A DNA stretch of 47,034 nt from Pseudomonadota bacterium (lineage in GTDB: Bacteria; Pseudomonadota; Gammaproteobacteria; Xanthomonadales; Marinicellaceae): the NCBI GenBank assembly GCA_008501575.1, contig QQUO01000294.1, positions 1-47,034 of the forward strand, in the 5' to 3' direction. A program made the translations under genes and the position numbers. Every line of letters starts with the position of its first letter. Position 1 is the stretch's first letter. The notes beneath the pieces are model-generated. The model made no database searches. It saw only the letters and a program-made list of their open reading frames with translations, and was not told the origin of the DNA. This document shows, piece by piece, positions 1,632 through 41,970 of this stretch.

Positions 1632-2492
1632 GTGGATTTTGTTTGTTTGGATGTTGAAACCGCCAATGCCGATTTTGCTTCTATCTGTCAAATAGGGATT
1701 GCAAAGTATCGAAACGGTGCTGTTGTGGATGAGTATGTGGAGTTTGTAAATCCCGATGATTATTTTGATGAGATGAATGTTTACATCCATGGGATAACGG
1801 AAAGGACTGTTAAAAACAGTAAACGGTTTAATCAGCTGGTTGGTGATGTTTTAGATTTTATTGGTGATGACTTTTGTTTTACTCACACTGGTTTTGATAG
1901 AGTTTCGGTTAATAGAGCCTGTTTAAAATATCAATTACCAGAAACAGATGTTGAATGGCGTGATTCATCTATGGTCGCAAGGCGTACTTGGGATGATTTC
2001 AAATATAAGGGCTATGGACTTGATAATGTTTGTTCGTTTCTTGGATATGAGTTTAAACATCACGATGCTCTTGAGGACGCAAAAGCGGCCGGCCATGTCA
2101 TTATGTCTGCTTTGGAGAAATACCCTGGTGGTTTCGATGAACTAATCGAAAGGCTTGGTAAGCCATTGTCGCCGCATGTTTATGAGAAAGTGGCAAGGGA
2201 GGGCAATCAGGAAGGTATATTTTATGGCCAAAGTTTAGTGTTTACAGGTGCATTGACTATTGTTAGGCGTGAGGCGGCAGATTATGCTTCTCAATTGGGG
2301 TTTTCTGTCAAAAGCAGTGTTTCTAAAAAGACAGATATTCTGGTTGTTGGGGACCAAGACATTGAAAAATTAGCGGGGCATTCCAAGAGTTCAAAGCACA
2401 GAAAAGCTGATGAATTAAACAGAAATGGTGCCGGAATTAAAATCATAAAAGAAAGCGATTTTGTGGCACTTCATAAATCCGAAGAATTATAG
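1632..2492 (+). CDS. DEDDh 3'-5' exonuclease (Pol III epsilon-like) with C-terminal BRCT domain
   Basis: LDVETAN, H..FD and HHDALEDA exonuclease motifs; VFTGAL...SSVSKKTDILVVG...IIKESDF BRCT motif; GGAGG RBS. Confidence 0.9.
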   Translation: MDFVCLDVETANADFASICQIGIAKYRNGAVVDEYVEFVNPDDYFDEMNVYIHGITERTVKNSKRFNQLVGDVLDFIGDDFCFTHTGFDRVSVNRACLKYQLPETDVEWRDSSMVARRTWDDFKYKGYGLDNVCSFLGYEFKHHDALEDAKAAGHVIMSALEKYPGGFDELIERLGKPLSPHVYEKVAREGNQEGIFYGQSLVFTGALTIVRREAADYASQLGFSVKSSVSKKTDILVVGDQDIEKLAGHSKSSKHRKADELNRNGAGIKIIKESDFVALHKSEEL

Positions 2493-3215
2493 TCCGCTAC
2501 TACCTGACCTATGAACAATCCTGCCAATTATTTTAATGTTATCCATTTCCTCATCGGCAAGATGGATGTCATGCATATATCTTGGGTCATGGTCATTATC
2601 TGAATGAATTGAAATAATATTTTTTCGATAATAAGACAGTCTTTTTACTTGTACATCGGATGTTTCATTATTTACAAAAGCATAAACCTGGCCGTTTTTA
2701 ATTTCGTTTTGTGAAAGGTCAATGATAGCTGTATCACCATCCATAAGGGTGGGATGCATACTGTCGCCGTTAATAGTTATTGCAAGCAAGTTAAAGGACA
2801 TTGCTTTTGATTTTTTAATCCAATCTACTCTAAAAGCCAGCTCATTCTTAAGAGTCGGCCAGTCATTCTGGAATCCATCGCCTGCCGCCGCTTTAACATC
2901 AAGTTTTTTAATCATCAAAAATTCACCATCCGGCAAATCGCTATGATGATCCCATAACAAAACTTTATTTGCGCTGTATGTTTCAGCTTCGCTTTCAATA
3001 CGATTGTCTGGATTTTTATCGGTTCCAAACTGCAACCATTCGGGATCACACTTTAAAATTGATGCGACATTGAATATGCTGTTTGCCGGAATAGAACCTC
3101 TGCTGAGCCAGTTTGAAAATCTTTGCCTATCTATGGATAAGATTTTTGCAACTTCAGTTTGCGTCATATCGAGCTTGTTAAGCCTTGTTAATACTCTGTC
3201 TTTTAATGTTTCCAT
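2487..3215 (-). CDS. cI: CI-like repressor (HTH + S24 peptidase)
   Basis: N-terminal HTH (MTQTEVAKIL...FSNW), AAAG autocleavage site, GDSMHPTL serine and VKRL lysine; divergent from cro. Confidence 0.92.
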   Translation of the reverse strand: METLKDRVLTRLNKLDMTQTEVAKILSIDRQRFSNWLSRGSIPANSIFNVASILKCDPEWLQFGTDKNPDNRIESEAETYSANKVLLWDHHSDLPDGEFLMIKKLDVKAAAGDGFQNDWPTLKNELAFRVDWIKKSKAMSFNLLAITINGDSMHPTLMDGDTAIIDLSQNEIKNGQVYAFVNNETSDVQVKRLSYYRKNIISIHSDNDHDPRYMHDIHLADEEMDNIKIIGRIVHRSGSSGL

Positions 3216-3291
3216 AAACAAATAGTTTACACTTTATCCAAACTTATGAAAGCAACAATATGTTGACATAACGCAACGTTATGTTTACACT
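3213..3291 (+). promoter_or_regulatory. OR operators and PR promoter
   Basis: Operator copies at 3213-3231, 3250-3268 and 3271-3289 match the OL consensus. TTGACA(3263)-17-TACACT(3286). Confidence 0.82.
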
Positions 3292-3299
3292 TTGCTCCC

Positions 3300-3584
3300 A
3301 TGAATGAATTATTAAATAAAATTATTGACCATTTTGGGTCCCAGGCGAATTTGGCACGTACTTTAAAAATCAAGTCAATGGCAATTACTAATTGGCGAAA
3401 AAGAAAGTCTATTCCTGCAATTAGAGCTTACCAAATTCAAAAAATAACAAAGGGTAAATTTAAGGCTTCCAATATTATCGAATTATGCGACTCTGACGAT
3501 ACAGTGATTGTCGATTCGGTATGTAGTAAATCACGACATCCTGTAGGAAAAAGTCGATTATCTAATCGGAAGAGGGTGGGGTGA
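3300..3584 (+). CDS. cro: Cro-like (YdaS-type) HTH regulator
   Basis: IIDHFGSQANLARTL.I...AITNW...IPA.RA..IQ..T.G motif; divergent from cI. Confidence 0.85.
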   Translation: MNELLNKIIDHFGSQANLARTLKIKSMAITNWRKRKSIPAIRAYQIQKITKGKFKASNIIELCDSDDTVIVDSVCSKSRHPVGKSRLSNRKRVG

Positions 3585-3590
3585 TGGGTT

Positions 3591-3797
3591 GTGAATAAAT
3601 CAAACTTAAATAAAGTGTTAGATTTGTTTGGCTTTCTTGTTATTGGCTTTATTGTTTTTTTAATGGGGGCATTGTTCCATTCTTGTCTTGATCATCTAAG
3701 GAATCATCACCACCGGATTCGCACGCTTCAATTCCAAGTATGCAGTCTGACAGATTACGAATCTCCGGAATGTAAGAACTTGCGAGAGCTCCAATGA
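3591..3797 (+). CDS. Small membrane protein
   Basis: Follows cro by 6 nt, G-rich RBS, one TM segment; overlaps the 3' end of an antisense gene. Confidence 0.5.
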   Translation: MNKSNLNKVLDLFGFLVIGFIVFLMGALFHSCLDHLRNHHHRIRTLQFQVCSLTDYESPECKNLRELQ

Positions 3798-4212
3798 ATG
3801 CCACAAGCAAAGCGCCTAAAAACCATAGAACAGACCTAATGGACCAGTGCAATGTTTTGGGTTTGGACTCATTAGCTCGTATATCTGACAGAATTTCTTT
3901 TATTACATCTTTTGTCGTTTTTCGTACATACATTCCTTTATACCCTGATAATAAGCATTGTCTAAGTTTTACATCCTTTATTACATCAAAATCATCTTTA
4001 AGTAGATTTTGTAAGTCTATTTTTTCCAATGTCAAAAGTATATCTGTGCTTATATCGAAATACCTGGGCAGATTATGTTCAGGTATTTTTAAGGGTTCAG
4101 GTTCTACATATTCAAATAAAGATTTATTCGGCGGATTCCTTGAAGTAATTAATTTCAATAAAGATTTTTTATCATTTTTATCTTCGTCGTCATCAAAAAA
4201 ATCGTCAAGCAT
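3649..4212 (-). CDS. AT-rich moron, hypothetical protein with C-terminal TM helix
   Basis: ATG 4212 with an AGGA RBS, protein-like composition, TM segment SVLWFLGALLVAFIGALAS; antisense to the PR operon. Confidence 0.7.
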   Translation of the reverse strand: MLDDFFDDDEDKNDKKSLLKLITSRNPPNKSLFEYVEPEPLKIPEHNLPRYFDISTDILLTLEKIDLQNLLKDDFDVIKDVKLRQCLLSGYKGMYVRKTTKDVIKEILSDIRANESKPKTLHWSIRSVLWFLGALLVAFIGALASSYIPEIRNLSDCILGIEACESGGDDSLDDQDKNGTMPPLKKQ

Positions 4213-4266
4213 AAAAATTCCTGTGATAAATGTTATGTCGCAAGCTAAGTTTACCACAGGATTAAA

Positions 4267-4520
4267 AAACGGCGCCCGGGGTGATTCCCCCGCTCAGGGC
4301 TCCGGTGCCGTTTCCCGCTTTGCGGGTTTTATTCGGGCTTTGGTCGTTGGCCTTTCTGAAAACGACTATCGGCGCGAATTTTCCTCCCGGTTCAGCGCCT
4401 TGTCTTGGCCCTGGTTTGTCATCTATCCCCGGGCCTTTTTTACACTATGCGCAAAGCCCTTCACCCACACACCCACGTTGCGCGACGGTTGGTGGTTATC
4501 CGTTACCTCTGAAAACCACC
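4267..4520 (+). ncRNA. Putative structured RNA: tandem array of 7 hairpins with pyrimidine-rich loops
   Basis: Stems at 4267-4313, 4314-4326, 4341-4368, 4371-4399, 4407-4435, 4449-4483 and 4491-4520. G-U pairs form only on the + strand. Confidence 0.65.
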
Positions 4521-4539
4521 TTTATTTTGGTAATTCACA

Positions 4540-5331
4540 ATGAGCGATTTAATCCCTAATTCATTTCAGGTTCCTAATGCGTTTGTGGACGTTATTATGT
4601 CTGATATTTCTGGTAATGCCGTGAAGTGCTATCTTTTAATTGTGCGCAAAACGGTCGGGTGGGGTAAAGAAAAAGACCGTATTTCAGTCAGTCAGTTTAG
4701 AAAATATACCGGTATATCTAAGGATGGAACGATCACGAAAATCACAAAAGAACTTGAAGATTTTGGACTAATAACAAGGCACAAAGAACTGGGTAAAATC
4801 ACGGAATTCAGCCTTAGACTACCCCCTAAAAACCACCCCCCTTTAGAGGGGGTACCCCCCATTAAGGGTACCACCCCTGAGAGGGGGGACACCACCCCCC
4901 CTGAGAGGGGGTCTACAAAACCCACTAATACAAAACCCAATAAAAAGAAAAACAAACAAAAAGAAATCGACACGTCAAAAGGTTTTGAAAAGTGGTGGTC
5001 GATATATCCAAAAAAAGTCGGTAAGAAAACAGCATTGAAGATTTGGGAAAAATCAAAGCTGTTTAATCAATCCGATGAATTAATCCAAAAGCTATCTGAG
5101 CAGGTCGAGCGATGCGAGAGCATGAACCGGTCTGATAAATCCCTTATCGCTCACCCGAGCACATATCTGAATCAAGAACGTTGGGATGATGAAATCATTC
5201 CTATTCCGGAGAAATCAAATGCAATCAGCAAGACAAATAATCAATCAGAATCCTATGCCGATAAACTCAACCGAGAATGTGAAGAGTTCGAGCGATCAAT
5301 GCAACAGGCAACAGGAACACGATTCGGTTAA
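4540..5331 (+). CDS. Phage replication initiator (O-like)
   Basis: PNSFQVPNAFVD...LLIVRKT.GW.K..DRIS.SQF N-terminus; FE.WW..YPKKVGK...HPSTYLNQERW.D C-terminus; internal iterons. Confidence 0.88.
   Translation: MSDLIPNSFQVPNAFVDVIMSDISGNAVKCYLLIVRKTVGWGKEKDRISVSQFRKYTGISKDGTITKITKELEDFGLITRHKELGKITEFSLRLPPKNHPPLEGVPPIKGTTPERGDTTPPERGSTKPTNTKPNKKKNKQKEIDTSKGFEKWWSIYPKKVGKKTALKIWEKSKLFNQSDELIQKLSEQVERCESMNRSDKSLIAHPSTYLNQERWDDEIIPIPEKSNAISKTNNQSESYADKLNRECEEFERSMQQATGTRFG
4832..4965. repeat. Phage replication origin: iterons plus A-rich tract within O
   Basis: About 4 copies of ACC(A)CCCC(C)..GAGGGGG(T) at 4832, 4854, 4870 and 4891, followed by an A-rich run, as in lambda ori. Confidence 0.75.
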
Positions 5332-5995: not shown

Positions 5996-6192
5996 TTAAG
6001 TTAATATTTATTTTAGTGGTCCGATTTGCGAGCAGTGAACCATTGACAATAGAGCCACATGAGATCTGTGTCCAGGCATTCGCCAACTACCCGACAAATC
6101 AAACATATTACGATTTGGCGACCGGCATTAATTGTATTCCACCCGGTGCCGAGTTCCGTGATTTTATTTATCGGGATGGGTTTGATGATTAA
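5992..6192 (+). CDS. Small exported protein ending in DFIYRDGFDD
   Basis: ATGA coupling to the upstream gene, hydrophobic N-terminus, two Cys. Confidence 0.6.
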   Translation: MIKLIFILVVRFASSEPLTIEPHEICVQAFANYPTNQTYYDLATGINCIPPGAEFRDFIYRDGFDD

Positions 6193-7402
6193 CTTCATGT
6201 CGCTTTTCGCTGGCATCGGCGGCTTCGATTTAGGGTTTGAGAGGGCCGGCATGACACCGGTTGCACAATGTGAAATAGACCCATGGTGCCAAAAGGTATT
6301 AAAAAAACACTGGCCTGATGTGCCACTTTATGATGATGTGACTGAGCTCACATGGGAGCAACTAAAAAATGACGGAATCGAATCAATTGAACTTGTTTGC
6401 GGAGGATTCCCTTGCCAGCCATTCTCACTTGCCGGGAGGCGAAATGGCACAAAAGATGACAGACATCTCTGGCCAGCAATGCTCAGGATTATCGACGAAG
6501 TCAGGCCGGCTTGGGTTGTTGGTGAAAATGTTGCTGGAATCGCCAGTATGGAACAGTTCGAAGTGTTATTTAAAATGGAAAGCAAAACCCATCGCTTCAA
6601 AGGTTCATACGATGACTTTGAAGCGGTATATCTACGAGAAACAGAAATGTTACTCGACGGTATCATTAAAGACCTTGAAAAAATCGGTTACTCAGTCCAA
6701 TCATTTACTATTCCAGCTTGTGCCGTCGATGCCCAACACAGACGGGATAGATTGTGGATTGTGGCTCACACCGAGAAGTCAGGAAACTTACGAGGATCCG
6801 GTGAAATTTCAAACAAGGATGAAAAAATACAACAACGGTTCAAAATGTCCGAATTTATCAACTCAAGTAAAGCATACACACCTGTTCAGAACGCCGGATG
6901 CGCACTGCGGCCGAGGGGCAAAATCCGAAAAAACATTAAAAAGGAAAATAAAAGAAGGGATGCCAATAAATCTGAACGACCAGGTAGCGCATCCGCACCT
7001 ATTTTGGGCAACACCAGCAGCAACAGCCACAGAAACGAGCTCAGGCCAAAAAGCTTATTGGACCGGGACATGTTGGGTTCGTCCGGACGGAACGAAAAGA
7101 CAAACAAATCTACAGGACCAAGTGAAGATGTATCCGACACCACTTGCCCGAGACCACCGATTCAGGATGGATTTAAAAACAGTTGCGAAAAGAGCAAATC
7201 ATTCAAGAGGCGTGAATCTTTCCGAATATGTTCAAAGGATAGACCAATCAAATGGCCAGCTGAACCCAGAGTGGGTCGAGTGGCTAATGGGATACCCCGC
7301 CGGGTGGACAGACTTAGAGGATTAGGTAATGCCGTCGTGCCACAGATTCCTGAAATTATTGGCCGTGCGATTATGGCTATTGAGAATGGGGAAATCGTAT
7401 GA
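6185..7402 (+). CDS. C5 cytosine DNA methyltransferase, alpha polypeptide (motifs I-VIII and X)
   Basis: SLFAGIGG (I), GGFPCQPFS (IV), ENV (VI), HRRDR (VIII), LGNAVVP (X). Start reassigned to ATG 6185. Confidence 0.92.
   Translation: MINFMSLFAGIGGFDLGFERAGMTPVAQCEIDPWCQKVLKKHWPDVPLYDDVTELTWEQLKNDGIESIELVCGGFPCQPFSLAGRRNGTKDDRHLWPAMLRIIDEVRPAWVVGENVAGIASMEQFEVLFKMESKTHRFKGSYDDFEAVYLRETEMLLDGIIKDLEKIGYSVQSFTIPACAVDAQHRRDRLWIVAHTEKSGNLRGSGEISNKDEKIQQRFKMSEFINSSKAYTPVQNAGCALRPRGKIRKNIKKENKRRDANKSERPGSASAPILGNTSSNSHRNELRPKSLLDRDMLGSSGRNEKTNKSTGPSEDVSDTTCPRPPIQDGFKNSCEKSKSFKRRESFRICSKDRPIKWPAEPRVGRVANGIPRRVDRLRGLGNAVVPQIPEIIGRAIMAIENGEIV
6369..7325 (+). CDS. Nested out-of-frame MTase beta polypeptide (repeats + motif IX)
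   Basis: 318-aa ORF inside the MTase gene with a GGGAG RBS. It ends in LNPEWVEWLMGYPAGWT (motif IX-like, missing from alpha) and has four TP...NL..QV repeats. Confidence 0.8.
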   Translation: MTESNQLNLFAEDSLASHSHLPGGEMAQKMTDISGQQCSGLSTKSGRLGLLVKMLLESPVWNSSKCYLKWKAKPIASKVHTMTLKRYIYEKQKCYSTVSLKTLKKSVTQSNHLLFQLVPSMPNTDGIDCGLWLTPRSQETYEDPVKFQTRMKKYNNGSKCPNLSTQVKHTHLFRTPDAHCGRGAKSEKTLKRKIKEGMPINLNDQVAHPHLFWATPAATATETSSGQKAYWTGTCWVRPDGTKRQTNLQDQVKMYPTPLARDHRFRMDLKTVAKRANHSRGVNLSEYVQRIDQSNGQLNPEWVEWLMGYPAGWTDLED

Positions 7403-16035: not shown

Positions 16036-16574
16036 ACGTCATTGAGCGCCTGGGCGACCAGATAGTCACATTAGCCGAAGCAAAGGCAAACAGCCGTGTC
16101 ACATCGACTGCTGAAGATACTTTGTTTCAGCATTGGATTGATGTTGCGCACGACGATGTTGAAGGTGATGCAGGATTAGTCTTACAGCGCGCCAAATGCA
16201 CTCAGGTTGATCGCGAGTGTGAGTATATCGACCTATCGGCCCCGGTACGCGGAATTGTTAGCGTAAAAGACGGCTCAGGTGATGATGTTGATTATGAGAT
16301 AGTAGAGACATCGAAATATGGCGCAAGATTGACATTCACAAAGCAATCACAAGTCAAAGTGACCTATATTGCCGGCTTTGGCGAATATATAGTCACTGGA
16401 GCCGAAACAGCGGTTAATGAGGGTGATATTGCGCCTTATCCACTTGCTAAAGCGGCCGTATTGGTCCTGACAAATCATTATTACGAAAACAGGGGTGTCG
16501 TGACTGACTTTAGCACTTACCCGGTGCCGGTCGGGTTTGACCGCATTATTCAATTGATAACCAAGTACAGATAA
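16032..16574 (+). CDS. Head-tail connector (gp6-like adaptor)
   Basis: VTLAEAK...RV....ED, V.Y.AGFG and AVL.L..HYYENR motifs. Confidence 0.9.
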   Translation: MNVIERLGDQIVTLAEAKANSRVTSTAEDTLFQHWIDVAHDDVEGDAGLVLQRAKCTQVDRECEYIDLSAPVRGIVSVKDGSGDDVDYEIVETSKYGARLTFTKQSQVKVTYIAGFGEYIVTGAETAVNEGDIAPYPLAKAAVLVLTNHYYENRGVVTDFSTYPVPVGFDRIIQLITKYR

Positions 16575-17053
16575 TGCACGTTACAGCCTTTGAGAACGCG
16601 AAAAAGTTCGCTCATAAGTACAACGCCACGGATAAAAAGGTTCTGGACGTCGGTTCATACGACGTAAATGGAACCCTAAAACCATTATTCCGTGACTATA
16701 CCGGCATGGACATCGAAAAGGGCCCTAACGTGGATGTGGTGGCTAAATTAGGTCAGCCATTTCCGTTTGATGACCAGTCGGTCGATGTGATTGTGTCATC
16801 ATCATGCCTTGAGCATGACCCGTCATTCTGGGTCACTGTAAAAGAAATGATGCGCGTGGCCGGTGAACTGATTTACATAAACGTGCCATCAGCGCAGTTT
16901 TACCACGCTTATCCGATTGACTGCTGGCGGTTTTTGGCTGATTCGATGGCCGCACTGGCTGAATTATCTGATGATTGGGAATTGGTCGAAACATACATCG
17001 ACGACCGAGATCCTTGGTGCGATTGCGTAGGGATTTTTAAGCGTGTCAAATAA
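16574..17053 (+). CDS. Class I SAM-dependent methyltransferase (small-molecule/glycan type)
   Basis: VLDVGS.DVNG, G.D...GPNVD.V, PF.D.S.D..VSSS.LEH, YH.YP.DCWRF. Confidence 0.88.
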   Translation: MHVTAFENAKKFAHKYNATDKKVLDVGSYDVNGTLKPLFRDYTGMDIEKGPNVDVVAKLGQPFPFDDQSVDVIVSSSCLEHDPSFWVTVKEMMRVAGELIYINVPSAQFYHAYPIDCWRFLADSMAALAELSDDWELVETYIDDRDPWCDCVGIFKRVK

Positions 17054-17690
17054 AATAATCACGCCCACCGGTGGTCGGCCGGAAGCCATAGCCAATTTAA
17101 ACGATTATTTGACCCGTCAGACATTTCAGGACTTTGAATGGATTATCCTGGATGACGTCGAGCCACACGGCCACGCTCCGAGCCGATGCGACCACTACAT
17201 CGTCGCTGATTGGGTCTGGAACGGTGAAAACACACAATCTAAGGCCGTGGCCAGGCTATTACAAGAAGTCATCGACAGTGACAAGGTGCTGATTTGTGAA
17301 GATGACGACTGGTACAGCCCACACTATGTTGAAAAAATGATTAAAGCATTGAATAATGCTGATATCGTTGGTGAGAAAAATGCCATTTATTACAACGTCA
17401 ACAATTACACATACAGGCACTGCGGAAATACAAAGCATGCAAGCTTATGCTCGACAGGTGTTACAAAGACAGGCATAGAGAGATTACGAAAATCAACTAA
17501 CAACAAATGGATTGACATGGAATTGTGGAAGTCTGGCGGTCAATTATTAAGCACACGGGACAGTTTAGGGATAAAAGGAATGCCAGGTCGTGTTGGTATT
17601 GGTGTTGGTCATGACATGGTGGCAACACCAGACCCTAACCATGAATTTTTAAAGTCAATTATTGGTGATGACGCCCGGCGTTATGTTTGA
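17043..17690 (+). CDS. GT-A fold (GT2-like) glycosyltransferase
   Basis: ITPT..RP, QT..DFEWIILDD, and EDDDWY (DxD) motifs. Confidence 0.85.
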   Translation: MSNKIITPTGGRPEAIANLNDYLTRQTFQDFEWIILDDVEPHGHAPSRCDHYIVADWVWNGENTQSKAVARLLQEVIDSDKVLICEDDDWYSPHYVEKMIKALNNADIVGEKNAIYYNVNNYTYRHCGNTKHASLCSTGVTKTGIERLRKSTNNKWIDMELWKSGGQLLSTRDSLGIKGMPGRVGIGVGHDMVATPDPNHEFLKSIIGDDARRYV

Positions 17691-17692
17691 TT

Positions 17693-18229
17693 ATGTCAAC
17701 GTTTATTATTTGCGCATCCGGTCAATCGCTGACACAAGACGACGTCGATTACTGCCGCGGCAAAGGTACGGTCATCGTCACTAATAATACCTATGAGTTG
17801 GCACCATGGGCTGATGTTCTATGGGGTTGCGATGAGGTATGGTGGGAAAAATACCCGGAAGCCATGGACTTTAAAGGCCGTAAAATATCAGTCCAATATT
17901 CCGAAGTCGAACAGATACAGACCCTTGACCGCCCCGGACTTGGATTAGAACAGGTACACACCGGCGGGAACGGTGGTTATCAGGCGATAAACTGGGCTTA
18001 TTTGCAAGGTGCGACAAAGATTGTCATGCTTGGCTTTGATATGCATGGAACGCACTGGCACGGAAAACACAAAAGAGGATTGGGTAATGTACACAATTTC
18101 AAAGCATGGATTCCAGCCTTTGGCCGATTGGCAAAAGATTTAGAAAGACAAGGTGTCGATGTGATTAACTGCACCCCGGGCACCGCCTTACACTGCTTTA
18201 AAAAACAGGACTTACGAGAAACGATATGA
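17693..18229 (+). CDS. Maf/GT42-like (sialyltransferase-fold) putative glycosyltransferase
   Basis: IICASGQSL (compare IIAGNGPSL), V.N, and NGG..AI..A...GA..I..LGFD (compare CstII SG...A..LG...I.L.G.D). Confidence 0.65.
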   Translation: MSTFIICASGQSLTQDDVDYCRGKGTVIVTNNTYELAPWADVLWGCDEVWWEKYPEAMDFKGRKISVQYSEVEQIQTLDRPGLGLEQVHTGGNGGYQAINWAYLQGATKIVMLGFDMHGTHWHGKHKRGLGNVHNFKAWIPAFGRLAKDLERQGVDVINCTPGTALHCFKKQDLRETI

Positions 18230-31996: not shown

Positions 31997-33580
31997 ATGA
32001 CCGAAGACCAAAAGAAAAACCTTGAAACCCAGCTTTGGGGGATTGCCAATTTATTGCGGGGGAAAATTTCTGCCGATGATTATCGTGATTACATTCTGGG
32101 CTTTATCTTCTTTAAATACCTCTCGGAAAAACAATACCTGTACGCCAATGAGCTGCTGATGGGCGAAGCCGTGACTGAATACACCGAAGTCACCGATGCC
32201 GAAACCCTGAAAGCCATTGAAGAAGAATCGGTGCTTAAACTCGGTTATTATCTGGCACCCACGGATCTGTTTCGGGAATTGGTGGCAAAGGGACAAGGTA
32301 AGGCTGCAGCGAATCAGGACGGCGATGAATCCAATTACATCCTTGAAGACCTGCAGGCGGTGCTGAATCACATCGAAGACAGCACCCGGAACACCGAATC
32401 CGAAGACGATTTTAATGCCTTATTCGAAGACTTGGATTTACAGTCCAGTAAACTCGGCCGCACGGTGAAAGCCCGCAATGACATTGTGGTCGAAATTCTC
32501 GGCTTTTTAAGTAAGATTGATTTTAAACTCGATCAAATCGATTCCGATGTCCTCGGTGATGCCTATGAATACCTGATTGCGAAATTCGCCGCCGGGGCAG
32601 GTAAGTCAGCCGGTGAATTTTATACCCCGCAAAAGGTCTCGAAGATACTGGCGAAAATCGTCACCACCGGTAAAGACCGATTGCGTTCAGTGTATGATCC
32701 CACTTGTGGTTCCGGTTCCTTGCTGTTGCGGGTGCAAAAGGAAGCCGAGGTGGCTGAGTTTTATGGTCAGGAATTAAACCGCACCACCTATAACCTGGCG
32801 CGCATGAACATGATTATGCACGATGTCCATTACCGGGATTTCGATATCCGTCAGGATGACACCTTAGAAAACCCAGCGCATATTGATATGCGCTTCGAAG
32901 CCGTGGTCGCCAATCCGCCATTCTCGGCGCATTGGAAATCAAGCGGCAATCCCTTAAACAATAACGACGAACGCTTCAGCCCCTACGGCCGACTGGCCCC
33001 GAAAACCAAAGCCGATTACGCCTTCCTGACCCACATGCTCTATCAGCTCGATGATAACGGCATTATGGCCTCAGTCTTTCCCCACGGCGTCTTATTCCGT
33101 GGTGCCGCCGAAGGTGTGATTCGTGAATACATTATCCGCGAAATGAACGCCCTCGATGCCGTTATCGGCTTACCCGCCAATATCTTCTACGGTACCAGCA
33201 TTCCCACCTGTATTCTGGTGCTCAGAAAAGACCGCAAGCCTGATGACAAGGTGGTCTTTATCGACGCCAGTGGCGACGGGCATTTCATCAAAGAAGGCAA
33301 CCAGAACGTCCTGCGCGACGAAGATGTGGATTTAATCGTCGAAACATATAGAAAGCGCGAAGCCAAAGACAAATTCAGCCACATCGCCAGCTTAGCCGAA
33401 ATCGCCGAAAACGATTACAACCTGAATATCCCCCGGTATGTGGATACTTTTGAGGAGGAAGAGCCGGTGGATCTCAAAGCCGTCTCAATGGAACTGAAAC
33501 AACTGGATAAGGAACTGGCAGAAACCAACAAAGACATTCAAAAGTATTGTGATGAACTTGGGATTGAGACGCCGTTTTGA
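31997..33580 (+). CDS. hsdM: Type I restriction-modification methyltransferase subunit
   Basis: LW.IAN.LRG, GEFYTP, YDPTCGSGSLL, NPPF, PHGVLFRG, YNLNIPRYVD. Confidence 0.97.
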   Translation: MTEDQKKNLETQLWGIANLLRGKISADDYRDYILGFIFFKYLSEKQYLYANELLMGEAVTEYTEVTDAETLKAIEEESVLKLGYYLAPTDLFRELVAKGQGKAAANQDGDESNYILEDLQAVLNHIEDSTRNTESEDDFNALFEDLDLQSSKLGRTVKARNDIVVEILGFLSKIDFKLDQIDSDVLGDAYEYLIAKFAAGAGKSAGEFYTPQKVSKILAKIVTTGKDRLRSVYDPTCGSGSLLLRVQKEAEVAEFYGQELNRTTYNLARMNMIMHDVHYRDFDIRQDDTLENPAHIDMRFEAVVANPPFSAHWKSSGNPLNNNDERFSPYGRLAPKTKADYAFLTHMLYQLDDNGIMASVFPHGVLFRGAAEGVIREYIIREMNALDAVIGLPANIFYGTSIPTCILVLRKDRKPDDKVVFIDASGDGHFIKEGNQNVLRDEDVDLIVETYRKREAKDKFSHIASLAEIAENDYNLNIPRYVDTFEEEEPVDLKAVSMELKQLDKELAETNKDIQKYCDELGIETPF

Positions 33581-33703
33581 GCAATGGAGAATGGAAAAGT
33601 GATAATGGAAAATAAGAACTCGTCATATCGACTAAGCGAAGCGCATGGAGATATCTCCAAAACCCTTCGTCTTGTTTCTTACGAAGGGAGGACACAGGTT
33701 TAA

Positions 33704-34903
33704 ATGGATAATGGACAATTAATACCTGAGTTGAGATTTTCTCAATTTGAAGGAGGTTGGAGTTCAAATAAATTCGGTGATATTGCTAGTTTTAGCAGAG
33801 GTAAAGGAATATCCAAATCCGATATTGATGAAAGTGGTCATTTAGAATGTATTCGATATGGTGAGTTATATACTCATTATAACGAGGTCATTGATGATGT
33901 AATATCTCGAACTAACGTACACAAAACAAAGTTAATTCTTTCAGAAGCTGATGATGTCATCATTCCTGCATCAGGCGAAACGCAGATTGATATTGCGACA
34001 GCATCATGTGTTAAAAAGTCAGGGGTGGCATTAAGTGGTGACTTGAACATCATTAAATCCAAACTTAATGGTGTGTTTCTAGCCTACTATTTAAACAATA
34101 AAAAGAAGCTTGATATTGCTCGATTATCTCAAGGGATTTCAGTTGTACATTTGTACAGTAGCCAACTCAAAAGTTTGATTCTCAATTTTCCTGACGATGT
34201 AGAACAACAAAAAATCGCCAACTTCCTTACCGCCATCGACCAACGCATTACCTTACTCAAAGAAAAAAAAGCCGCCCTCGAACAATACAAAAAAGGCCTG
34301 ATGCAGAAAATTTTTAGTCAGGAGGTTCGGTTTACAGATGATGAGGGGAATGGTTTTCCGGATTGGGAGGAAGGTAAATAAAATTCATTATGTAAAGTAA
34401 ATCCGAAATCCGACGATTTGCCTAAAACATTTATTTATATTGATTTAGAAAGTGTAAAAGATGGTCAATTGCAACTTGAGAACAGGGTACAAAAAGAAGA
34501 TGCACCATCAAGAGCACAGAGGTTGCTTGAAAAAGGTGACATTCTCTACCAAATGGTTAGGCCATACCAAAAAAACAATTTGTATTTTAATAAAAATGAC
34601 GAGTATGTTGCATCAACCGGTTATGCCCAGTTAAGAGCAAAACAAAATAATGAGTTTTTATATTATTTGATTCATACGGAATCTTTTGTGAATTCGATTT
34701 TGCGTTTATGTACAGGATCCAATTATCCAGCAATTAACTCAACAGATTTAGCAACTGTGAAAATCAGTTATCCATGTAAAGAAGAACAACAAAGAATCGC
34801 CAATTTTCTGTCCGCCATCGATCAAAAAATCAATACTATAGATAAGCAAATTGACGATTCGGAATTGTTTAAAAAGGGCTTATTGCAGCGGATGTTTGTT
34901 TGA
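33704..34903 (+). pseudogene. hsdS: Type I R-M specificity subunit with a single in-frame TAA at 34379-34381
   Basis: PELRF..F, two EQ..IANFL.AIDQ.I conserved regions, KKGL.Q..F. The two track ORFs are in the same frame, separated only by one stop. Confidence 0.9.
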
Positions 34904-34915
34904 GAAGAGAAATAT

Positions 34916-37063
34916 ATGATTAATAGAGAGAAAACAATAGAACTATATAAAAAATATGGGTTTAAACATAGAAAAAGCTCATCAGGTAATTATTTTTTAG
35001 GGTTTACATATAAAACTGGATTTTTCAATAATGCAGAACTTGTTTCCTTAATAGGTGAAGACAAAGAAAAAGTTGAGTTAGAAATGAATGATAAAGCTAA
35101 TGAACTTGAAAAATTAGGCTTTTCAACAAAAAAAACATTTTACTCTTCATTTAATGAAATAGAAACTCAGTTATTCAAGGGTTTTTTTAATGTAAGTCAA
35201 TGGAAGAAGAATATTAAACACGAATATGAAAGTTTCATCAATAATATTTTGAAATCACTTCCAGATAATTCTTGCAAATATAAATATATAAATTCGCCTT
35301 ACATTAAAAATAGCAAAAAAGGTGAATCAAAAATTGTAGAAGAAGTTTGTAATGGGCTAAATGAGAAAGGTGCAGAACTAACAATAATTGAAGCTCCGGC
35401 AGGGTTTGGGAAAACTAGTACTTCTTATGAAATTTTAAATTGGTTACTTGAAAATACAGATTATCCAATACCTTTTTTTACAGAGTTCTCTAGAGATAGG
35501 CAAGCTCAAGTCTTTAGTCATATATTAATTCGAGAAGTAGACAGATCATTTACTTCAGTAAATTCTGATTTGGTTATAGAGCAAGTTAAAAAGGGACGAA
35601 TAATTATAGTTTTAGATGGTTTTGATGAACTTCTTCATGAAAGTGCTAATGATGATAAAAATAATCAAAAAGAAAACTTTGAAAGTACTGAACCAATGCT
35701 TGAAACAATTAGTGAATTATTAACAGATAATTCAAAAGTTATTTTGACATCACGTAGATCAGCTATTTTTGATGGCGAGTTATTTAATGAATGGGTAGAT
35801 AAATACGCAGATACTTTCAGAATTAACAGATATCGAATTGAATCACCAAATATAACAGATTGGCTGGATGATGAAAAAATAAAGAAACTAAAAAAAGTGA
35901 ATATTCAAATAGAGGATTTGGCTAATCCAGTTCTTTTAACATTTTTAAGAAGTATAAATATTAGAAAACTTAAAAAACTTTGCGAAACCCCTAAGCTAAT
36001 TGTAGAACATTACTTTGAATCTATGCTTGAGAGAGAAATTGATAGGCAAAACTTAAGAATGAGTGTCGATCAGCAAAATAAATTATTTAAGTTAATTGCT
36101 CAGGATATGTCTAGTAATGATTATACAACTATTTCAAAAGAAGCTTTAATATCCTTTATTAAAGAGAAGGCAAAAGATATATTGCAAAAAGTTAGAGAAT
36201 CATACTCAGCTCAAAATAGGCCAACTATTGATAAGCTCTCCAACACACTATCAAATCATGCTTTTTTTGATAAAAGTAGCTATGGCGAAAATAATATAGA
36301 ATTTATAAATGAGTTTGTTTTCGGTAATTATATTGGTCTTAATATTTTAGAGTTTGATGGGAATTGGATAGCAAGTGATGAAAGGTTTGTTGAACCAGCA
36401 GTTAATTCTTATATTGCAAGAGATTGGGACACTAGAAAGCGTCTATGGAAAAAGCTAGAAAGTATAAATGAGTTTTTAGAGCCTTCAATAAGACATAAAT
36501 TCGAAGCTCAACTTACACGTGTTGTTAATGATAATAGTTATGATGGCGTAGATATTTCATCGTTAAATTTAAAAAATATAAAATTTTTTAAAAAAGGATC
36601 AATCAATAAAAGTATTTACCATAATTGTACTTTCACAAATTGTATATTCTATCTTGAAAATTTTAATGATGTTACATTTTTAAATTGTACCTTTTGGAAT
36701 TGTTTATTTGAATTTCATGAGATTAGTGAGCAATCCATACAATTTTACAACTGTAAAGACAATACTAATGTAATCCAATCATATGAGGAATCATTTCAAG
36801 ATGATGAACAAACTGAAAAACCAGACGTGCAAAAATATATACTTACAAAAATATGGCCCTTAAGTCAGCCTTCATTAAGAAGAATTCATTACTTTTTATC
36901 TAATTTGTTTCAAACAGATGAATTTACTAAAAAAGAATTAATAAAGGGTATTAAAGAACTAAAATCGAAAGAGATATTGATTGATGCCCATGATTCAAAT
37001 TTTATTCAAATAAATAAACATAAAATCAACGAATTTAAAAAGATTCAAGGAAGAAGCGAATGA
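34916..37063 (+). CDS. NACHT/STAND-like P-loop NTPase with pentapeptide-like repeats
   Basis: EAPAGFGKTS (Walker A), IIIVLDGFDEL (Walker B), VILTSR, NPVLL; NCTFTNCIF...NCTFWNCLF repeats. Confidence 0.85.
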   Translation: MINREKTIELYKKYGFKHRKSSSGNYFLGFTYKTGFFNNAELVSLIGEDKEKVELEMNDKANELEKLGFSTKKTFYSSFNEIETQLFKGFFNVSQWKKNIKHEYESFINNILKSLPDNSCKYKYINSPYIKNSKKGESKIVEEVCNGLNEKGAELTIIEAPAGFGKTSTSYEILNWLLENTDYPIPFFTEFSRDRQAQVFSHILIREVDRSFTSVNSDLVIEQVKKGRIIIVLDGFDELLHESANDDKNNQKENFESTEPMLETISELLTDNSKVILTSRRSAIFDGELFNEWVDKYADTFRINRYRIESPNITDWLDDEKIKKLKKVNIQIEDLANPVLLTFLRSINIRKLKKLCETPKLIVEHYFESMLEREIDRQNLRMSVDQQNKLFKLIAQDMSSNDYTTISKEALISFIKEKAKDILQKVRESYSAQNRPTIDKLSNTLSNHAFFDKSSYGENNIEFINEFVFGNYIGLNILEFDGNWIASDERFVEPAVNSYIARDWDTRKRLWKKLESINEFLEPSIRHKFEAQLTRVVNDNSYDGVDISSLNLKNIKFFKKGSINKSIYHNCTFTNCIFYLENFNDVTFLNCTFWNCLFEFHEISEQSIQFYNCKDNTNVIQSYEESFQDDEQTEKPDVQKYILTKIWPLSQPSLRRIHYFLSNLFQTDEFTKKELIKGIKELKSKEILIDAHDSNFIQINKHKINEFKKIQGRSE

Positions 37064-37926
37064 TTGATCACTTAAATACGAAATTTATTGAACGGGAAAT
37101 TGTAAGAGAGATTAGTGAAATACTTAACAGTGTTGGAATTATGTTTAGGATTTTTTCAAGATCAAAATCAAGTAGATCTGTCAGTAAAAAAATAGAATCT
37201 GATCAAGAATATGGCAAATCAAAAAAGATTCAAGATTTGTTAGGCATAAGAATAGTACTGTATTTTAATGATGATATAGAAACTGTCCGAAATATCATAT
37301 CAAGGAGTTACTCTGAAAGTTCTAATGATGTAAGTATTGATGCAGTTAATAGTGAACAGTTTAAAGCATTACGATATAACATTATTTATAAATTACCTTC
37401 AAATCATAAAGAGGATTTAAAGTTAGAAGATTTATCAAATTTATTTGATTATACTTTTGAGCTTCAAATTAGAACTATTTTTTCAGAGGGTTGGCATGAA
37501 GTAGAGCACGATCTAAGGTACAAATGTAAATCCGATTGGAAGAGTTATGAGTTACAAAGTAGATTACTAAATGGTGTCTATGCATCTTTAGAAACAAATG
37601 AATGGACTATGATAAAAATTTTTGATGAACTTTCATATAACCATTATTTGAATAAAGAATGGGAAGCAATGTTTAGACAAAAATTTAGAATGAGATTTTT
37701 AGAGGATAAAATAAGTTCTGATATAAATACAATTTTTCAAAATAATTCAATAGCTAAAAAATTTTTCAGAATTGAAAGAAACAAACTTATTGAAGAAATG
37801 AATCTTAGAGGGTTTTATTTCCCAATAACTATAGATAATATCATTTATTTTGGTAATTTGGTTTTTGTTAAAAATAGTGAGATAAAAAGAATAACTCCAA
37901 ATATAATGATAAATGACATGACTTAA
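37060..37926 (+). CDS. RelA/SpoT-domain nucleotidyltransferase (small alarmone synthetase-like)
   Basis: R.KS..S...KI, QDLLGIRIV, FELQIRT...EGWHEVEHDLRYK; ATGA-coupled to the NTPase. Confidence 0.88.
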   Translation: MIDHLNTKFIEREIVREISEILNSVGIMFRIFSRSKSSRSVSKKIESDQEYGKSKKIQDLLGIRIVLYFNDDIETVRNIISRSYSESSNDVSIDAVNSEQFKALRYNIIYKLPSNHKEDLKLEDLSNLFDYTFELQIRTIFSEGWHEVEHDLRYKCKSDWKSYELQSRLLNGVYASLETNEWTMIKIFDELSYNHYLNKEWEAMFRQKFRMRFLEDKISSDINTIFQNNSIAKKFFRIERNKLIEEMNLRGFYFPITIDNIIYFGNLVFVKNSEIKRITPNIMINDMT

Positions 37927-38080
37927 ATGCAGAAGTTTAAGTGGTCAATTATTTTTTAAAAACTTGGACCTCCGGGTGGCTTACAGGAAGTAAGTCTGCA
38001 ACGATAGCAATGGACGCGATAGTCGTCACCAAGAGTAGGGCCTTTAAGGCAGCCCGAAGGTGTCGCGGTTTGTTGGAAGA

Positions 38081-38103
38081 TTGATGGGCGGAGCCCATCC
38101 TAC
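38081..38103. repeat. Single REP
   Basis: TTGATGGGCGGAGCCCATCCTAC. Confidence 0.75.
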
Positions 38104-38292
38104 GCTTTCTATCATCACGCATAATGTCCTAAGTCCCGGGACGTGGGACAAGCTCTATTGACAAGGACAATTATTAGATAAATCAGGATTTTTTTAAGTA
38201 AAGAGATTAATACCCAATAATATTAAATATTTGGTAAATATGTTAAAAAGTGGTCGTTAAAGATTTATGAATGCACGTTATGAACTAAGTAT

Positions 38293-38943
38293 ATGATTAT
38301 TTTCTTGGATGAATCTGGTGACTTGGGTTTTGATTTTGAAAATAAGAGTCCATCGAGCTATTTTGTGATTACATTACTCGTTTGTGATGGTAAACCAGCC
38401 ACAGATTCTTTTAAAGTGGCAGTAAAGCGTGCTTTGAAAAATAAACTTAACCACAAGAAATCCAGAAGAAAAGTACAGGAACTGCATGCGACTCAATTAA
38501 GCTTTTCGATAAAAAAATATTTTTACAAGCAAATTAAATGTTTCGATTGGCAGATTTACACAATCGGATTAAATAAAAGAAATGTGTTTGAATACCTGAC
38601 GAATAAGGTGGGTCGCAAAAAACTGTATAATTATTTAGCCAACTACATCATTGAAAAAGTTAATTTTAAACGCGCCACTTCGGCGGTGACTTTAGTGGTG
38701 GATAAATGTAAGAATAAAGCTGAGATAGAGGACTTTAATCAGTATTTAGAGAATCAGTTAGAAGGGGAATTGCCATTGGAAACTTCCCTAAATGTGTACC
38801 ATGCAGATTCAATGAATAGTTTTGGTTTACAGGCGGTTGATTTATTTTGTTGGGGTGTGTTTCGAAAATACGAACGACAAGATTTGCAATGGTATGATAT
38901 TTATAAAAAACAGATTAAGTTCGAAACGGAATATTTGAAATGA
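38293..38943 (+). CDS. DUF3800 family protein
   Basis: IFLDESGDLG, ELH, and C-terminal S....GLQAVD motifs. Confidence 0.88.
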   Translation: MIIFLDESGDLGFDFENKSPSSYFVITLLVCDGKPATDSFKVAVKRALKNKLNHKKSRRKVQELHATQLSFSIKKYFYKQIKCFDWQIYTIGLNKRNVFEYLTNKVGRKKLYNYLANYIIEKVNFKRATSAVTLVVDKCKNKAEIEDFNQYLENQLEGELPLETSLNVYHADSMNSFGLQAVDLFCWGVFRKYERQDLQWYDIYKKQIKFETEYLK

Positions 38944-38951
38944 AAATCAGG

Positions 38952-39048
38952 CAAAAAAAAGACGGCCCCTGTTATGTCGATAATCTTCAAACTCTTGCCA
39001 ACCGATGGAAGGGAACATTTGAAGCACATAAGAGGATTTACCCGTCTG
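38952..39048 (-). ncRNA. DUF3800-associated ncRNA (~95 nt), convergent with the gene
   Basis: Nested stems AGACGG/CCGTCT, TTATGT/ACATAA and CTTCAAA/TTTGAAG. It has its own minus-strand promoter and a U8 tail. Confidence 0.75.
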
Positions 39049-39053
39049 TTTCA

Positions 39054-39082
39054 ATTATGGCGCCGGGGAATAACAATTTCAA
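39054..39082 (-). promoter_or_regulatory. Promoter for the DUF3800 ncRNA
   Basis: Minus strand TTGAAA-17-CATAAT, placing +1 at the first base of the closing stem. Confidence 0.7.
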
Positions 39083-39117
39083 GTATTTAATGATTAAACA
39101 GGCCTATATTGACTAAA

Positions 39118-41970
39118 ATGACCACCCAATCCGAACAAACCCTCGAAAACAGCCTGATTAAACAACTCACCGAACTGGGTTACTCGCGTGTTCATGTCAG
39201 TAATGACAAGGAACTGGTAGCTAACTTTAAAATCCAGCTGGAGCGTTTTAACGATGTTTCGTTAAGTGACCATGAGTTTAAGCAAATCCTCAATAGCATC
39301 AATAAGGGCAGTGTGTTTAATCGGGCGGGGATTTTACGGGATCGGGTGACGTATATGGATGGTGCGGGTGAGACCCGGACGGTACAGTTATTGGATGTCT
39401 TTAATTTAGATAAGAATACCTTTCAGGTGACGCAGCAGGTAAGGATGGAGGGGCGTTATCAGAATAGATATGATGTGACGATTTTGATTAATGGCTTGCC
39501 CTTGGTGCAGATTGAATTAAAGCGTCGCGGTTTGGAGCTGAAAGAGGCGTTTAATCAGATTAACCGTTATGAAAAACATTCCTATTGGTCGGGGCATGGT
39601 TTATTTCAGTTTGTGCAGTTGTTTGTGATTAGTAATGGCGTGAATACCAAGTACTTCGCTAACAATGCCATTGCCTCTCGTTCCTTTAAGCAGACCTTTT
39701 ACTGGAGCACCGAGGACAATAAGCAGGTGACGGATTTAAGCGCGTTCGCTGCGGCTTTTTTGTATCCGGGTCATCTGGCGAAAATGATTGCGCAGTATAT
39801 TGTTTTAAATGAAACTGAGAAGATGCTGATGGTGCTCAGGCCTTATCAGTATTACGCCACCGAGGCGATTGTCGAGCGGGTGAAAACGTCAAGCGATTAC
39901 GGTTATATCTGGCACACCACCGGTTCCGGTAAAACCTTGACCTCGTTTAAAACCGCACAAATTCTCACGGCTTTACCGGCGGTGCATAAGGTGGTGTTTG
40001 TGGTGGACCGCAAAGACCTCGATTATCAGACCAGTAAGGAATTTAATAAATTCGCCAAAGGCAGTATTGATGCCACGGAGAACACCGATGCGCTGGTGGA
40101 TCAGTTAACCGATGATACCGGCTTAGTGGTGACCACCATTCAAAAGCTCAATAATGCCATCAGTAAACAAAAATACCTGCAGAAGCTGGCGCATTTACAG
40201 GATAAAAAAGTAGTGTTTATTTTTGATGAATGTCACCGCAGTCAATTCGGTGATACCCATGGTCGGATTAAGGAGTTCTTTCAGGCCTGTCAGATGTTCG
40301 GTTTCACCGGCACGCCGATCTTTGTTGAAAATGCCATTAAGAATGACCTGGGTAAACGCACCACCGCCATGTTATTCGGCGACTGCCTGCATAAATATGT
40401 GATTACCGATGCCATCCGTGATGGCAATGTCTTAAAGTTCTCCATTGAGTACATTAATACCTTTAAACAAAAAAGTACCATTGATGACATTAAAGTCGAA
40501 GACATCAATGAGGACGAGGTCTTTAATGCCCCGGAACGCCTGAACTTAGTCACCGATTACATCATTCAGAACCACGCCAGGAAAACCCATAATAAGTCCT
40601 TCACGGCGATATTCTGCGTCTCAAGCATTGAAACCCTGATTCAGTATTATCAGCTGTTCCTCGATAAGAAAGCCCAAGGTGAGCATAATTTAAAGCTGGC
40701 CACCATTTTTTCCTACCAGGCCAATGAAGAAGATCAGGACGCCCAAGGTTTAGGCGCCACCGATGTTGACTATCAGATGTTACAAGCGGCCGAGAAGGGC
40801 GGGGCTTATTCAAGCCACAGCCGTGATCACCTGGAACATTTTATCGGCGAATACAACCAACAATTCGGCAGTAATTACACCACCAAAGATTCCAAATCCT
40901 TTTATAATTACTACACCGATATCGCCAAGCGGGTTAAAGCCAAACAAATCGATATTCTACTGGTGGTGAATATGTTCCTCACCGGTTTCGACAGTAAGCC
41001 CCTAAATACTTTGTACGTGGATAAAAACCTGAAATTCCACGGTCTGATTCAAGCCTTTTCCAGAACCAACCGAATTTACAATGAGCTGAAATCACAGGGC
41101 AATATTGTCTGTTTCCGTAACCTCAAAGACGCCACCGATGATGCCATCCGCTTATTCTCCAGCCTGGATAATAAAGATGACATCATTATTCCGCCCTATG
41201 AAGATTATCTGGAGAAATTCGGCCTCGCCTATGCGCTGTTATTGAGCTTAGCGCCGACGGTGGATAGTGTTAATGACCTACAAACGGAAGAAGATGAGTT
41301 CGCCTTCGTGAAAGCCTTTCGGGAGCTAATGCGCATTAAAAACGTCCTCACCAGCTTCACTGATTTTAGTTTCGATGACTTGGACATGGATGCCCAGGAA
41401 TTTGAAGATTACAAAAGCAAATACCTGGATTTATACGATAAAGTCCACCGCCACACTGAAAAAGAAAAAGTCTCAATTCTCGATGACCTTGACTTCGAAC
41501 TGGAACTGATTCACCGCGATGAAATTAACGTGGTCTATATCGTTAATTTACTGAAAGGCCTGAAAGATGTGCCGGAAGCGGAACAGAAAAAACAAAAAGA
41601 CCAGATTATCAACGCCATGATGAGCGAAGTCGAACTGCGCAGTAAACGCGAACTGATTGAAAAATTCATCAATAAACACCTGCCACTGATTGCCGACGCC
41701 GAATCAGTCCCCGACGCCTTTGACGCCTTCTGGGAAGCCGAAAAACAACGCGCCATCAAACTATTCTCAGAAACCGAACAACTCGACCCCGAGAAACTCG
41801 AATCCGTCATCGGCGACTTTCTTTACACCAAACGCGAACCCATGCGCGAAGACGTCATCAGCATGATGAAAACCCGCCCCAAACTCAAAGAACGCGCCAC
41901 CACCGCCGAACGCCTCATCCAAAAAGTCACCCATTACGTGGATACTTTTGTCAGTGGGATGGGTGGGTGA
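39118..41970 (+). CDS. hsdR: Type I restriction endonuclease subunit R
   Basis: RYDVTILINGLPLVQIELK, WHTTGSGKT, FDECHRSQFG, GFTGTP, QAFSRTNR. Confidence 0.97.
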   Translation: MTTQSEQTLENSLIKQLTELGYSRVHVSNDKELVANFKIQLERFNDVSLSDHEFKQILNSINKGSVFNRAGILRDRVTYMDGAGETRTVQLLDVFNLDKNTFQVTQQVRMEGRYQNRYDVTILINGLPLVQIELKRRGLELKEAFNQINRYEKHSYWSGHGLFQFVQLFVISNGVNTKYFANNAIASRSFKQTFYWSTEDNKQVTDLSAFAAAFLYPGHLAKMIAQYIVLNETEKMLMVLRPYQYYATEAIVERVKTSSDYGYIWHTTGSGKTLTSFKTAQILTALPAVHKVVFVVDRKDLDYQTSKEFNKFAKGSIDATENTDALVDQLTDDTGLVVTTIQKLNNAISKQKYLQKLAHLQDKKVVFIFDECHRSQFGDTHGRIKEFFQACQMFGFTGTPIFVENAIKNDLGKRTTAMLFGDCLHKYVITDAIRDGNVLKFSIEYINTFKQKSTIDDIKVEDINEDEVFNAPERLNLVTDYIIQNHARKTHNKSFTAIFCVSSIETLIQYYQLFLDKKAQGEHNLKLATIFSYQANEEDQDAQGLGATDVDYQMLQAAEKGGAYSSHSRDHLEHFIGEYNQQFGSNYTTKDSKSFYNYYTDIAKRVKAKQIDILLVVNMFLTGFDSKPLNTLYVDKNLKFHGLIQAFSRTNRIYNELKSQGNIVCFRNLKDATDDAIRLFSSLDNKDDIIIPPYEDYLEKFGLAYALLLSLAPTVDSVNDLQTEEDEFAFVKAFRELMRIKNVLTSFTDFSFDDLDMDAQEFEDYKSKYLDLYDKVHRHTEKEKVSILDDLDFELELIHRDEINVVYIVNLLKGLKDVPEAEQKKQKDQIINAMMSEVELRSKRELIEKFINKHLPLIADAESVPDAFDAFWEAEKQRAIKLFSETEQLDPEKLESVIGDFLYTKREPMREDVISMMKTRPKLKERATTAERLIQKVTHYVDTFVSGMGG

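Follow-up and report, generated by a model that had tools for sequence, protein, structure and literature searches.

The window, the whole 47,034-nucleotide stretch of DNA analysed here, begins inside a lambdoid prophage whose host genome (2.7 Mb, 43.7% GC) encodes Hfq. The early region of this prophage runs in the order cI, PR-like promoter, cro, 68-aa ORF, 187-aa reverse gene, hairpins, O-like initiator and P-like loader. The cI gene lies on the minus strand (2487-3221), and upstream of cro a putative PR-like sigma-70 promoter (3263-3291, plus strand) is recognized by consensus match only, at 10 of 12 positions. The plus-strand cro-like gene (3300-3584; P22_Cro, E 2e-16) has a TGA overlapping an ATG, and across its end lies a G-rich ribosome-binding site, here called the head site (3566-3593, plus strand), that is predicted to start a coupled chain of frames. 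The 68-aa ORF (3591-3797, plus strand) contains a hydrophobic stretch, and its stop overlaps, as ATGA, the start of a 249-codon plus-strand frame (3794-4543) that crosses the reverse gene and all hairpins before reaching the O-like replication initiator (4540-5331, plus strand) in a further ATGA overlap. The Shine-Dalgarno (SD) sequence of the initiator is weak, 75% of host genes having a stronger one.

The reverse gene (3649-4212, minus strand), with its C-terminal hydrophobic helix, has no family. It is an orphan, membrane-anchored, convergent with PR transcription and wholly overlapped by the plus-strand spanning frame, and is possibly an exclusion or defence gene. A related phage, G068, carries a 43% identical homologue in the same place, as well as an ORF similar to the 68-aa ORF in the same location. 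In the window the ATG at the cro stop opens only four codons and a GTG 7 nt later is used instead (3584-3598); in G068 the ATG overlapping the cro stop opens the 72-aa ORF. The end of cro also shares a 17-nt identity between window 3520-3545 and L003 1722-1740 despite differing Cro proteins. This stretch is possibly a nut-like or operator site, and a search with the 17-mer returned two chance matches besides G068. Elsewhere in the window, direct repeats within O (4830-4915) are likely origin iterons, and a DNA methyltransferase gene (6059-7402) holds a nested 318-codon gene in another plus-strand frame (6369-7325; phrog_363, phrog_1008), whose start at 6444 is the best own-phage match of hairpin H4. 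Methyltransferase-like and sialyltransferase-like genes amid the head-tail connector genes (16574-18229) possibly serve virion glycosylation. A type I restriction-modification locus (31997-41970) has its hsdS split over two ORFs and two inserted genes with weak matches to HalA and a GTP diphosphokinase, and is possibly a defence hotspot.

The hairpins occupy what the preliminary description had called a GC-rich gap. The interval is indeed richer in GC than the prophage (57% vs 43.5%), but it is no gap, since it sits within the open frame 3794-4543. All seven proposed hairpins fold on the plus strand: H1 (4267-4313; -23.9 kcal/mol), H2 (4314-4333 with its U tract; -7.0), H3 (4341-4368; -8.4), H4 and H5, which together form a suhB/MmgR-like unit (4364-4442; -10.9 each), H6 (4449-4483; -5.1), with a weak stem and a C-rich loop of 23 nt, and H7 (4491-4520; -10.2). 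H2 and H5 both resemble intrinsic terminators in having a stem plus U tract, and the terminator scan itself reports H2 alone. Global folding is marginal (z -1.7 on plus, -1.5 on minus); with pair spans of at most 50 nt, z reaches -3.3 on the plus strand (0/200 shuffles) and -2.1 on the minus. G-U pairs had been taken to indicate a plus-strand RNA, and they favor it in the window (7 vs 3) and in a further related phage, G069 (13 vs 7), whereas G068 shows the reverse (3 vs 5). Upstream of the array a 12-bp inverted repeat, H0 (4219-4261), has as its arms the reverse gene's SD and, on the minus strand at 4248-4258, an element resembling an extended -10; the same H0 design is present in G068. The inverted repeats at window 4219-4261 and L003 2358-2397 would fold only on read-through or plus-strand RNA, an arrangement resembling fold-back protection.

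Relatives of the array are few. G068, the one viral contig recovered with the O protein, has identical gene order. A pattern for H4 matched 21 viral loci: G068, a third lambdoid phage in two copies (G069 and G070), ten loci with a solitary hairpin downstream of a gene, and eight matches that are coding or due to chance. The comparison comprises three phages with DNA, two of which have much of the region in common, and G068 and G069 are 82% and 77% complete. In both, an array with strong local folding (z -4.7 and -5.5) lies between cro and a replication initiator, and the initiators behind the two arrays are non-identical. Unit order differs, with H3-H4-terminator in G069 and H7-type-H4-H5 in G068, where the hairpin homologous to H7 occupies the H3 position. 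Stems covary, at H3 pair 6 (T-A in the window, A-T in G069) and at H7 pair 2 (G-C vs A-T). A fourth, mosaic array, P0009, is known as protein only, from a protein search with the spanning frame of G069, and fuses window-type H1-H2-H3 to G069-type H4 and terminators. It matches the window's H1-H2-H3 peptide at a pairwise E of 6e-6 and the G069 H4-terminator peptide at 81% over 57 aa. The 3' arm of H1 recurs in it, and its codons imply that H3 pair 6 is G-C and that the H1 and H3 loops differ, as deduced from the protein. The proposed homology of H3 and H7 rests on these relatives, since their common 12-mer alone arises in 9.7% of shuffles. A structured plus-strand RNA with conserved stems, variable loops and apparent duplication of H3/H7-type units is thereby supported, and the array is real, conserved and modular.

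Beyond these phages the array was not encountered. A DNA search among 60 relatives gave one match only, a chance coding one, and an O protein search of 43 family genomes gave none. Among 20 regions found with the cI family there was one lambdoid prophage (G063), related at family level and with a regulator gene akin to that of these phages, in which the array is absent. No homologue was found among INPHARED phages, a metagenome scan recovered G068's contig alone, and a GTDB pattern scan (17 loci) included no cro-O interval among the matches listed. Across the order, the pattern occurs in 31/401 genomes and by eye is mostly coding. The host genome holds no other copy of the kind expected of a REP-like repeat (best BLAST E 0.22), five partial DNA datasets showed no variants, and two small RNA runs gave no aligned reads. 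One of the GTDB loci, in Oceanicella actignis (L051, about 2440-2620), has three consecutive, cuckoo-like anti-SD hairpins.

The H4-H5 unit has a wider distribution. It consists of an anti-SD loop, TTTTCCTCCC, a linker, a GGCC terminator hairpin and a U tract, and its order of parts is that of the Rfam consensus for suhB/MmgR (RF00519): UUUCCUCCC, a short linker, a GGCC terminator hairpin and a U tract. Two scans for motif plus terminator found 28 and 38 viral loci, or 39 distinct loci, G068 included, once near-duplicates and contig-edge cases were removed. The terminator folds in 36/39, the motif is unpaired in 32/39 and lies inside a stem of at least 5 pairs in 21/39, an ACT..GCC linker is present in 23/39, and an upstream stop lies within 90 nt in 28/39. 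More generally, units of the suhB/MmgR type that score under the Rfam cut-off occur commonly 3' of stop codons in diverse phages (the L013 group with 9 loci; L108-L135; L194-L231). A model of 12 other phage loci, R1, matches window 4364-4442 at 36.2 bits (E 1e-7), and its clear matches are three, the units of the window, G068 and G069; since its loci were chosen by a pattern derived from the window and G068, the selection is partly circular for those two. R1 matches the host genome at this one place only, and it has matches in 14/150 genomes of the order. RF00519 itself did not match the window up to E 10, against a gathering cut-off of 41 bits, and its five weak matches in the host genome do not include the array. 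Related phage units score 23-28 bits against RF00519, and 19 related loci gave no Rfam match at gathering score; the suggestion that the array has no named family thus agrees with Rfam at its cut-offs. Unlike suhB/MmgR, the unit forms part of an array and lies in a reading frame; its host presumably falls outside the alphaproteobacterial range. The suhB family is described as having its own promoter (PMC1273637, consulted in part), and a consensus scan gave no promoter-like site near H3/H4. The available text of a further source describes SuhB and Hfq as blocking an SD (10.64898/2025.12.09.693200), and suhB alignments in paper supplements might list phage copies.

Along with this unit and the terminators, the preliminary description overlooked the coupled frame across the array. 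In 3/3 phages with DNA, a plus-strand frame runs from the preceding gene's stop, crosses the terminators and ends where it overlaps the initiator by ATGA, and its upstream junctions are ATGA, TAA-2 nt-GTG and TGATG. Shuffles keep this frame open in about 1.2% of cases for the window (0.27 x 0.044), 0.3% for G068 (0.039 x 0.077) and 1.0% for G069 (0.010, array part only); the frame was noticed post hoc and one alternative coupling frame is possible, which calls for a correction by a factor of two or three. As a control, gene-free DNA upstream of host genes is open over 66 codons in 19/794 cases and over 108 codons in 1/415. The mosaic array of P0009 is also a single ORF, necessarily so because it was discovered as protein. 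The spanning-frame peptide has no PHROG or Pfam family and no relative but itself among 1.84 billion representatives, and the reading frame at the H4 motif varies between phages. With the peptide lacking family and relatives while its frame changes, openness, not product, appears to be selected. A conserved protein-coding frame had been named in advance as counting against an RNA; the frame is open in 3/3 phages, yet its peptide is not conserved. The SD of O is weak in the window and G069 and fair in G068 (19% of host genes stronger), and in each of the three phages the head SD ranks within the top 2%. Weak SDs precede the spanning frame's starts, both at 3794 and in G068, so translation from them likely depends on re-initiation. 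No antiterminator annotation was found among the 28 left-arm proteins scanned in G068 and G069, and since the left arm is truncated in the window, the prophage may have an N-like gene.

The loops had been proposed to be antisense guides, each directed at its own ribosome-binding site. All five claimed pairings are present in the DNA: 14/15 for H1 (3 G-U), 11/12 for H6, 12/12 for H3 (1 G-U), 11/11 for H5 and 9 bp for H7. The loops are, as described, C-rich and G-poor; measured as binding of six loops to host SD windows, only H3, H4 and H7 outbind their own mononucleotide shuffles, by 0.9-1.6 standard deviations. C-rich loops able to pair with ribosome-binding sites are therefore supported, and silencing of one target by one loop is only weakly so. 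With energies computed as duplex energy plus opening cost on the guide side only, no loop does better than shuffles that keep its core (p 0.07-0.65; Fisher 0.04 across six non-independent loops). Own starts under the host 5% cut number 3/46, 3/56 and 3/60 in the three phages, without enrichment (p 0.67 for the window); these sets omit O's start in the window and the reverse gene's in G068, and starts were hand-set in the window and auto-called in the others. The best own targets per loop, combined, give p 0.008-0.013 when 900 host starts serve as reference, 0.06 with a sample of 500 host genes and 0.50 in a low-power test against pooled phage starts; loop limits were fixed after the claims were known. 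H3:19722 and H4:6444 are better than every one of the 116 starts in the other two phages, the starts of H5:20167 and H7:8561 are unremarkable at host percentiles of 23% and 38%, and some host starts equal or exceed the best own target. In G068 and G069 the loops show no self-preference (Fisher 0.29 and 0.76), and the G069 homologue of H3, which no longer contains the CCTTTC core, lacks a target in its own phage. We discarded an apparent match of the first hairpin of G068 to its tail-tube site because the arm involved is simply antisense to the SD of the reverse gene itself.

The target that recurs is the head site, the best own-phage target of both H6 and H7. H7 4498-4509 pairs with 3578-3589 over 12 bp (4 G-U). 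Among own starts the head site ranks 1 of 46, 2 of 56 and 2 of 60, and the G068 start ranked above it looks by eye like a tRNA miscalled as an ORF. As a binding partner of H6, H7 and the H4 of G069, the head site of the respective phage outranks 99.9% of 700 host starts and 99% of 152 G-rich starts; with the best G068 loop it reaches the top 2% among host starts and the top 16% among G-rich starts. This pairing is not self-specific, as loops bind other phages' sites equally well or better (G068 H4 on the window site, -21.9 kcal/mol; window H7 on the G068 site, -18.4). The G-rich run of G069 may come from repeats ending its regulator gene, and an array-less homologue of that gene has a similar but weaker run. 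Because H6 and H7 lie downstream of H5, they are present only after read-through.

Intrinsic terminators are overridden when ribosomes trail behind, and ATGA overlaps let ribosomes re-initiate. From the structure, the covariation, the pairing potential and the terminator-like hairpins inside a coupled open frame that we observe, we propose, at slightly less than even confidence, that the array is a modular RNA cassette for translation-coupled attenuation of the replication genes with antisense feedback. Ribosomes loading at the strong G-rich site after cro would travel the coupled chain of the 3591 ORF, the 3794 ORF and O, suppressing the terminators and bringing ribosomes to the SD-poor O start. 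If the head site were untranslated, H2 or H5 would terminate transcription, and a suhB/MmgR-like RNA would be set free. By folding back onto the G-rich site, the C-rich loops, chiefly those of H6 and H7 in the window, would dampen the chain as negative feedback, perhaps extending to related phages that enter the cell; they would also cover host SDs broadly instead of one target each.

A simpler account, which we hold to be rather unlikely on balance yet the strongest competitor, would see a tR-type terminator region with a suhB/MmgR- or cuckoo-like RNA masking many host SDs, the frame merely coupling O and no feedback acting on the phage's own site. The Hfq of the host, the host starts that score at least as well as the best own target and the occurrence of the H4-H5 unit at 39 distinct phage loci, with a stop codon no more than 90 nt upstream in 28, all fit this account, but it leaves unexplained the conserved strong head site, the very high rank of H6 and H7 on it, and the position of these two hairpins past the terminator. 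The guide model of the preliminary description, in which every loop has one particular gene of the phage, its host or a competitor as its target (1632, 19722, 6444, 20167, 3591), is doubtful: its five pairings are real, the combined p of 0.008-0.013 against 900 host starts and the superiority of H3:19722 and H4:6444 over 116 foreign phage starts favor it, and loops vary while stems covary, yet no single loop passes the core-kept shuffles, no set is enriched, the 82% and 77% complete relatives show no self-preference, two of the pairings are ordinary and the loop limits were set after the claims were seen.

Lambda OOP is an antisense RNA, and hairpins acting on the minus strand or as DNA might similarly provide an OOP-like antisense RNA, a terminator shield for the reverse gene's promoter, or GGA-loop protein decoys. 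The minus strand does fold (z -2.1), six U follow H1 on it, and H0 links the reverse gene's promoter with its SD; this is nevertheless very improbable given that U tracts follow H2 and H5, motif orientation is conserved, local z is lower on the plus strand in all three phages and the G069 interval has no called reverse gene. Least probable of all, to the point of near dismissal, is a functional protein from the spanning frame with incidental hairpins. The frame is open in every copy and annotated by gene callers, but it lacks family and relatives, differs between phages, and undergoes stem changes at second codon positions that keep the base pairs.

A more far-reaching, and in our judgment unlikely, extension is that the array is a recombining library of guide hairpins, duplicated, swapped and re-looped in a peptide-indifferent frame, which would gate replication without N and, once processed, silence several ribosome-binding sites, including the head site of related competitor phages. 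If true, this would be an RNA-only immunity system diversifying through module shuffling. The attenuation cassette with antisense feedback, if true, would mean a lambdoid early switch run by ribosome traffic via a throw-away frame, not by an N antiterminator, in which exchangeable anti-SD hairpins tune whether replication genes are made, and it would give a testable role to the suhB/MmgR-like units common at phage gene ends.

Several known systems share parts of this arrangement. In plasmid R1 tap-repA/CopA, a leader ORF is coupled to the replication initiator and leader translation is under antisense control, with CopA being a cis-encoded, fully complementary RNA. The array likewise couples a leader frame to a replication initiator; unlike with CopA, its pairing is partial and comes from downstream loops of the same transcript, and its leader passes through terminators. 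In P4, kil translation has a role in this kind of control. According to the available text of PMC4825925, an RNA cut from the phage early transcript acts back on that transcript in Gifsy-1 IsrK-orf45-anrP and P4 CI, where expression of the downstream gene depends on terminator read-through and on translational coupling via an ORF that spans structured RNA. By analogy, the array may work like P4 CI and IsrK/orf45, which we judge nearly as probable as not: an ORF over structured RNA is predicted, from the open frame and overlaps, to be coupled to the downstream gene. The loops are predicted to pair strongly with the head site of their own transcript, without self-specificity. The P4 CI, IsrK and C4 immunity Rfam families do not match (isrK E 1.5, 15.8 bits vs a cut-off of 50), and the array differs from these systems in lying in a lambdoid cro-O interval and in its modular, variable unit order.

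The Cuckoo/alpha-r14/CcsR RNAs and Xanthomonas sX13, as far as the portions consulted describe them, have adjacent hairpins with variable stems and C-rich loops pairing with SD or G-rich starts (PMC4615179, PMC7143759, PMC3771888). The array also has adjacent hairpins with C-rich loops, seven of them, beyond the 2-4 that characterize Cuckoo. In these portions the Cuckoo-type and sX13 loops repeat one motif (CCUCCUCCC, or 4C/5C), whereas the array's loops all differ and H4 alone has part of CCUCCUCCC. Cuckoo-type RNAs are, unlike the array, chromosomal and non-coding, and the word ‘phage’ is not used in the available text of PMC4615179; the sX13 family RF02232 scores 11.6 bits (E 3.2) on the array, below its 50-bit gathering score. 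A modular, shuffled cro-O cassette of anti-SD hairpins was not found in the literature searched, which left most subscription journals outside its scope. Anti-SD hairpins, leader-coupled initiators and self-acting phage RNAs are each already known, and, measured against the consulted portions of the sources, the array is composed of cuckoo-, sX13- and suhB-like parts while falling outside each of these groups (PMC4615179, PMC3771888, PMC1273637, PMC7143759).
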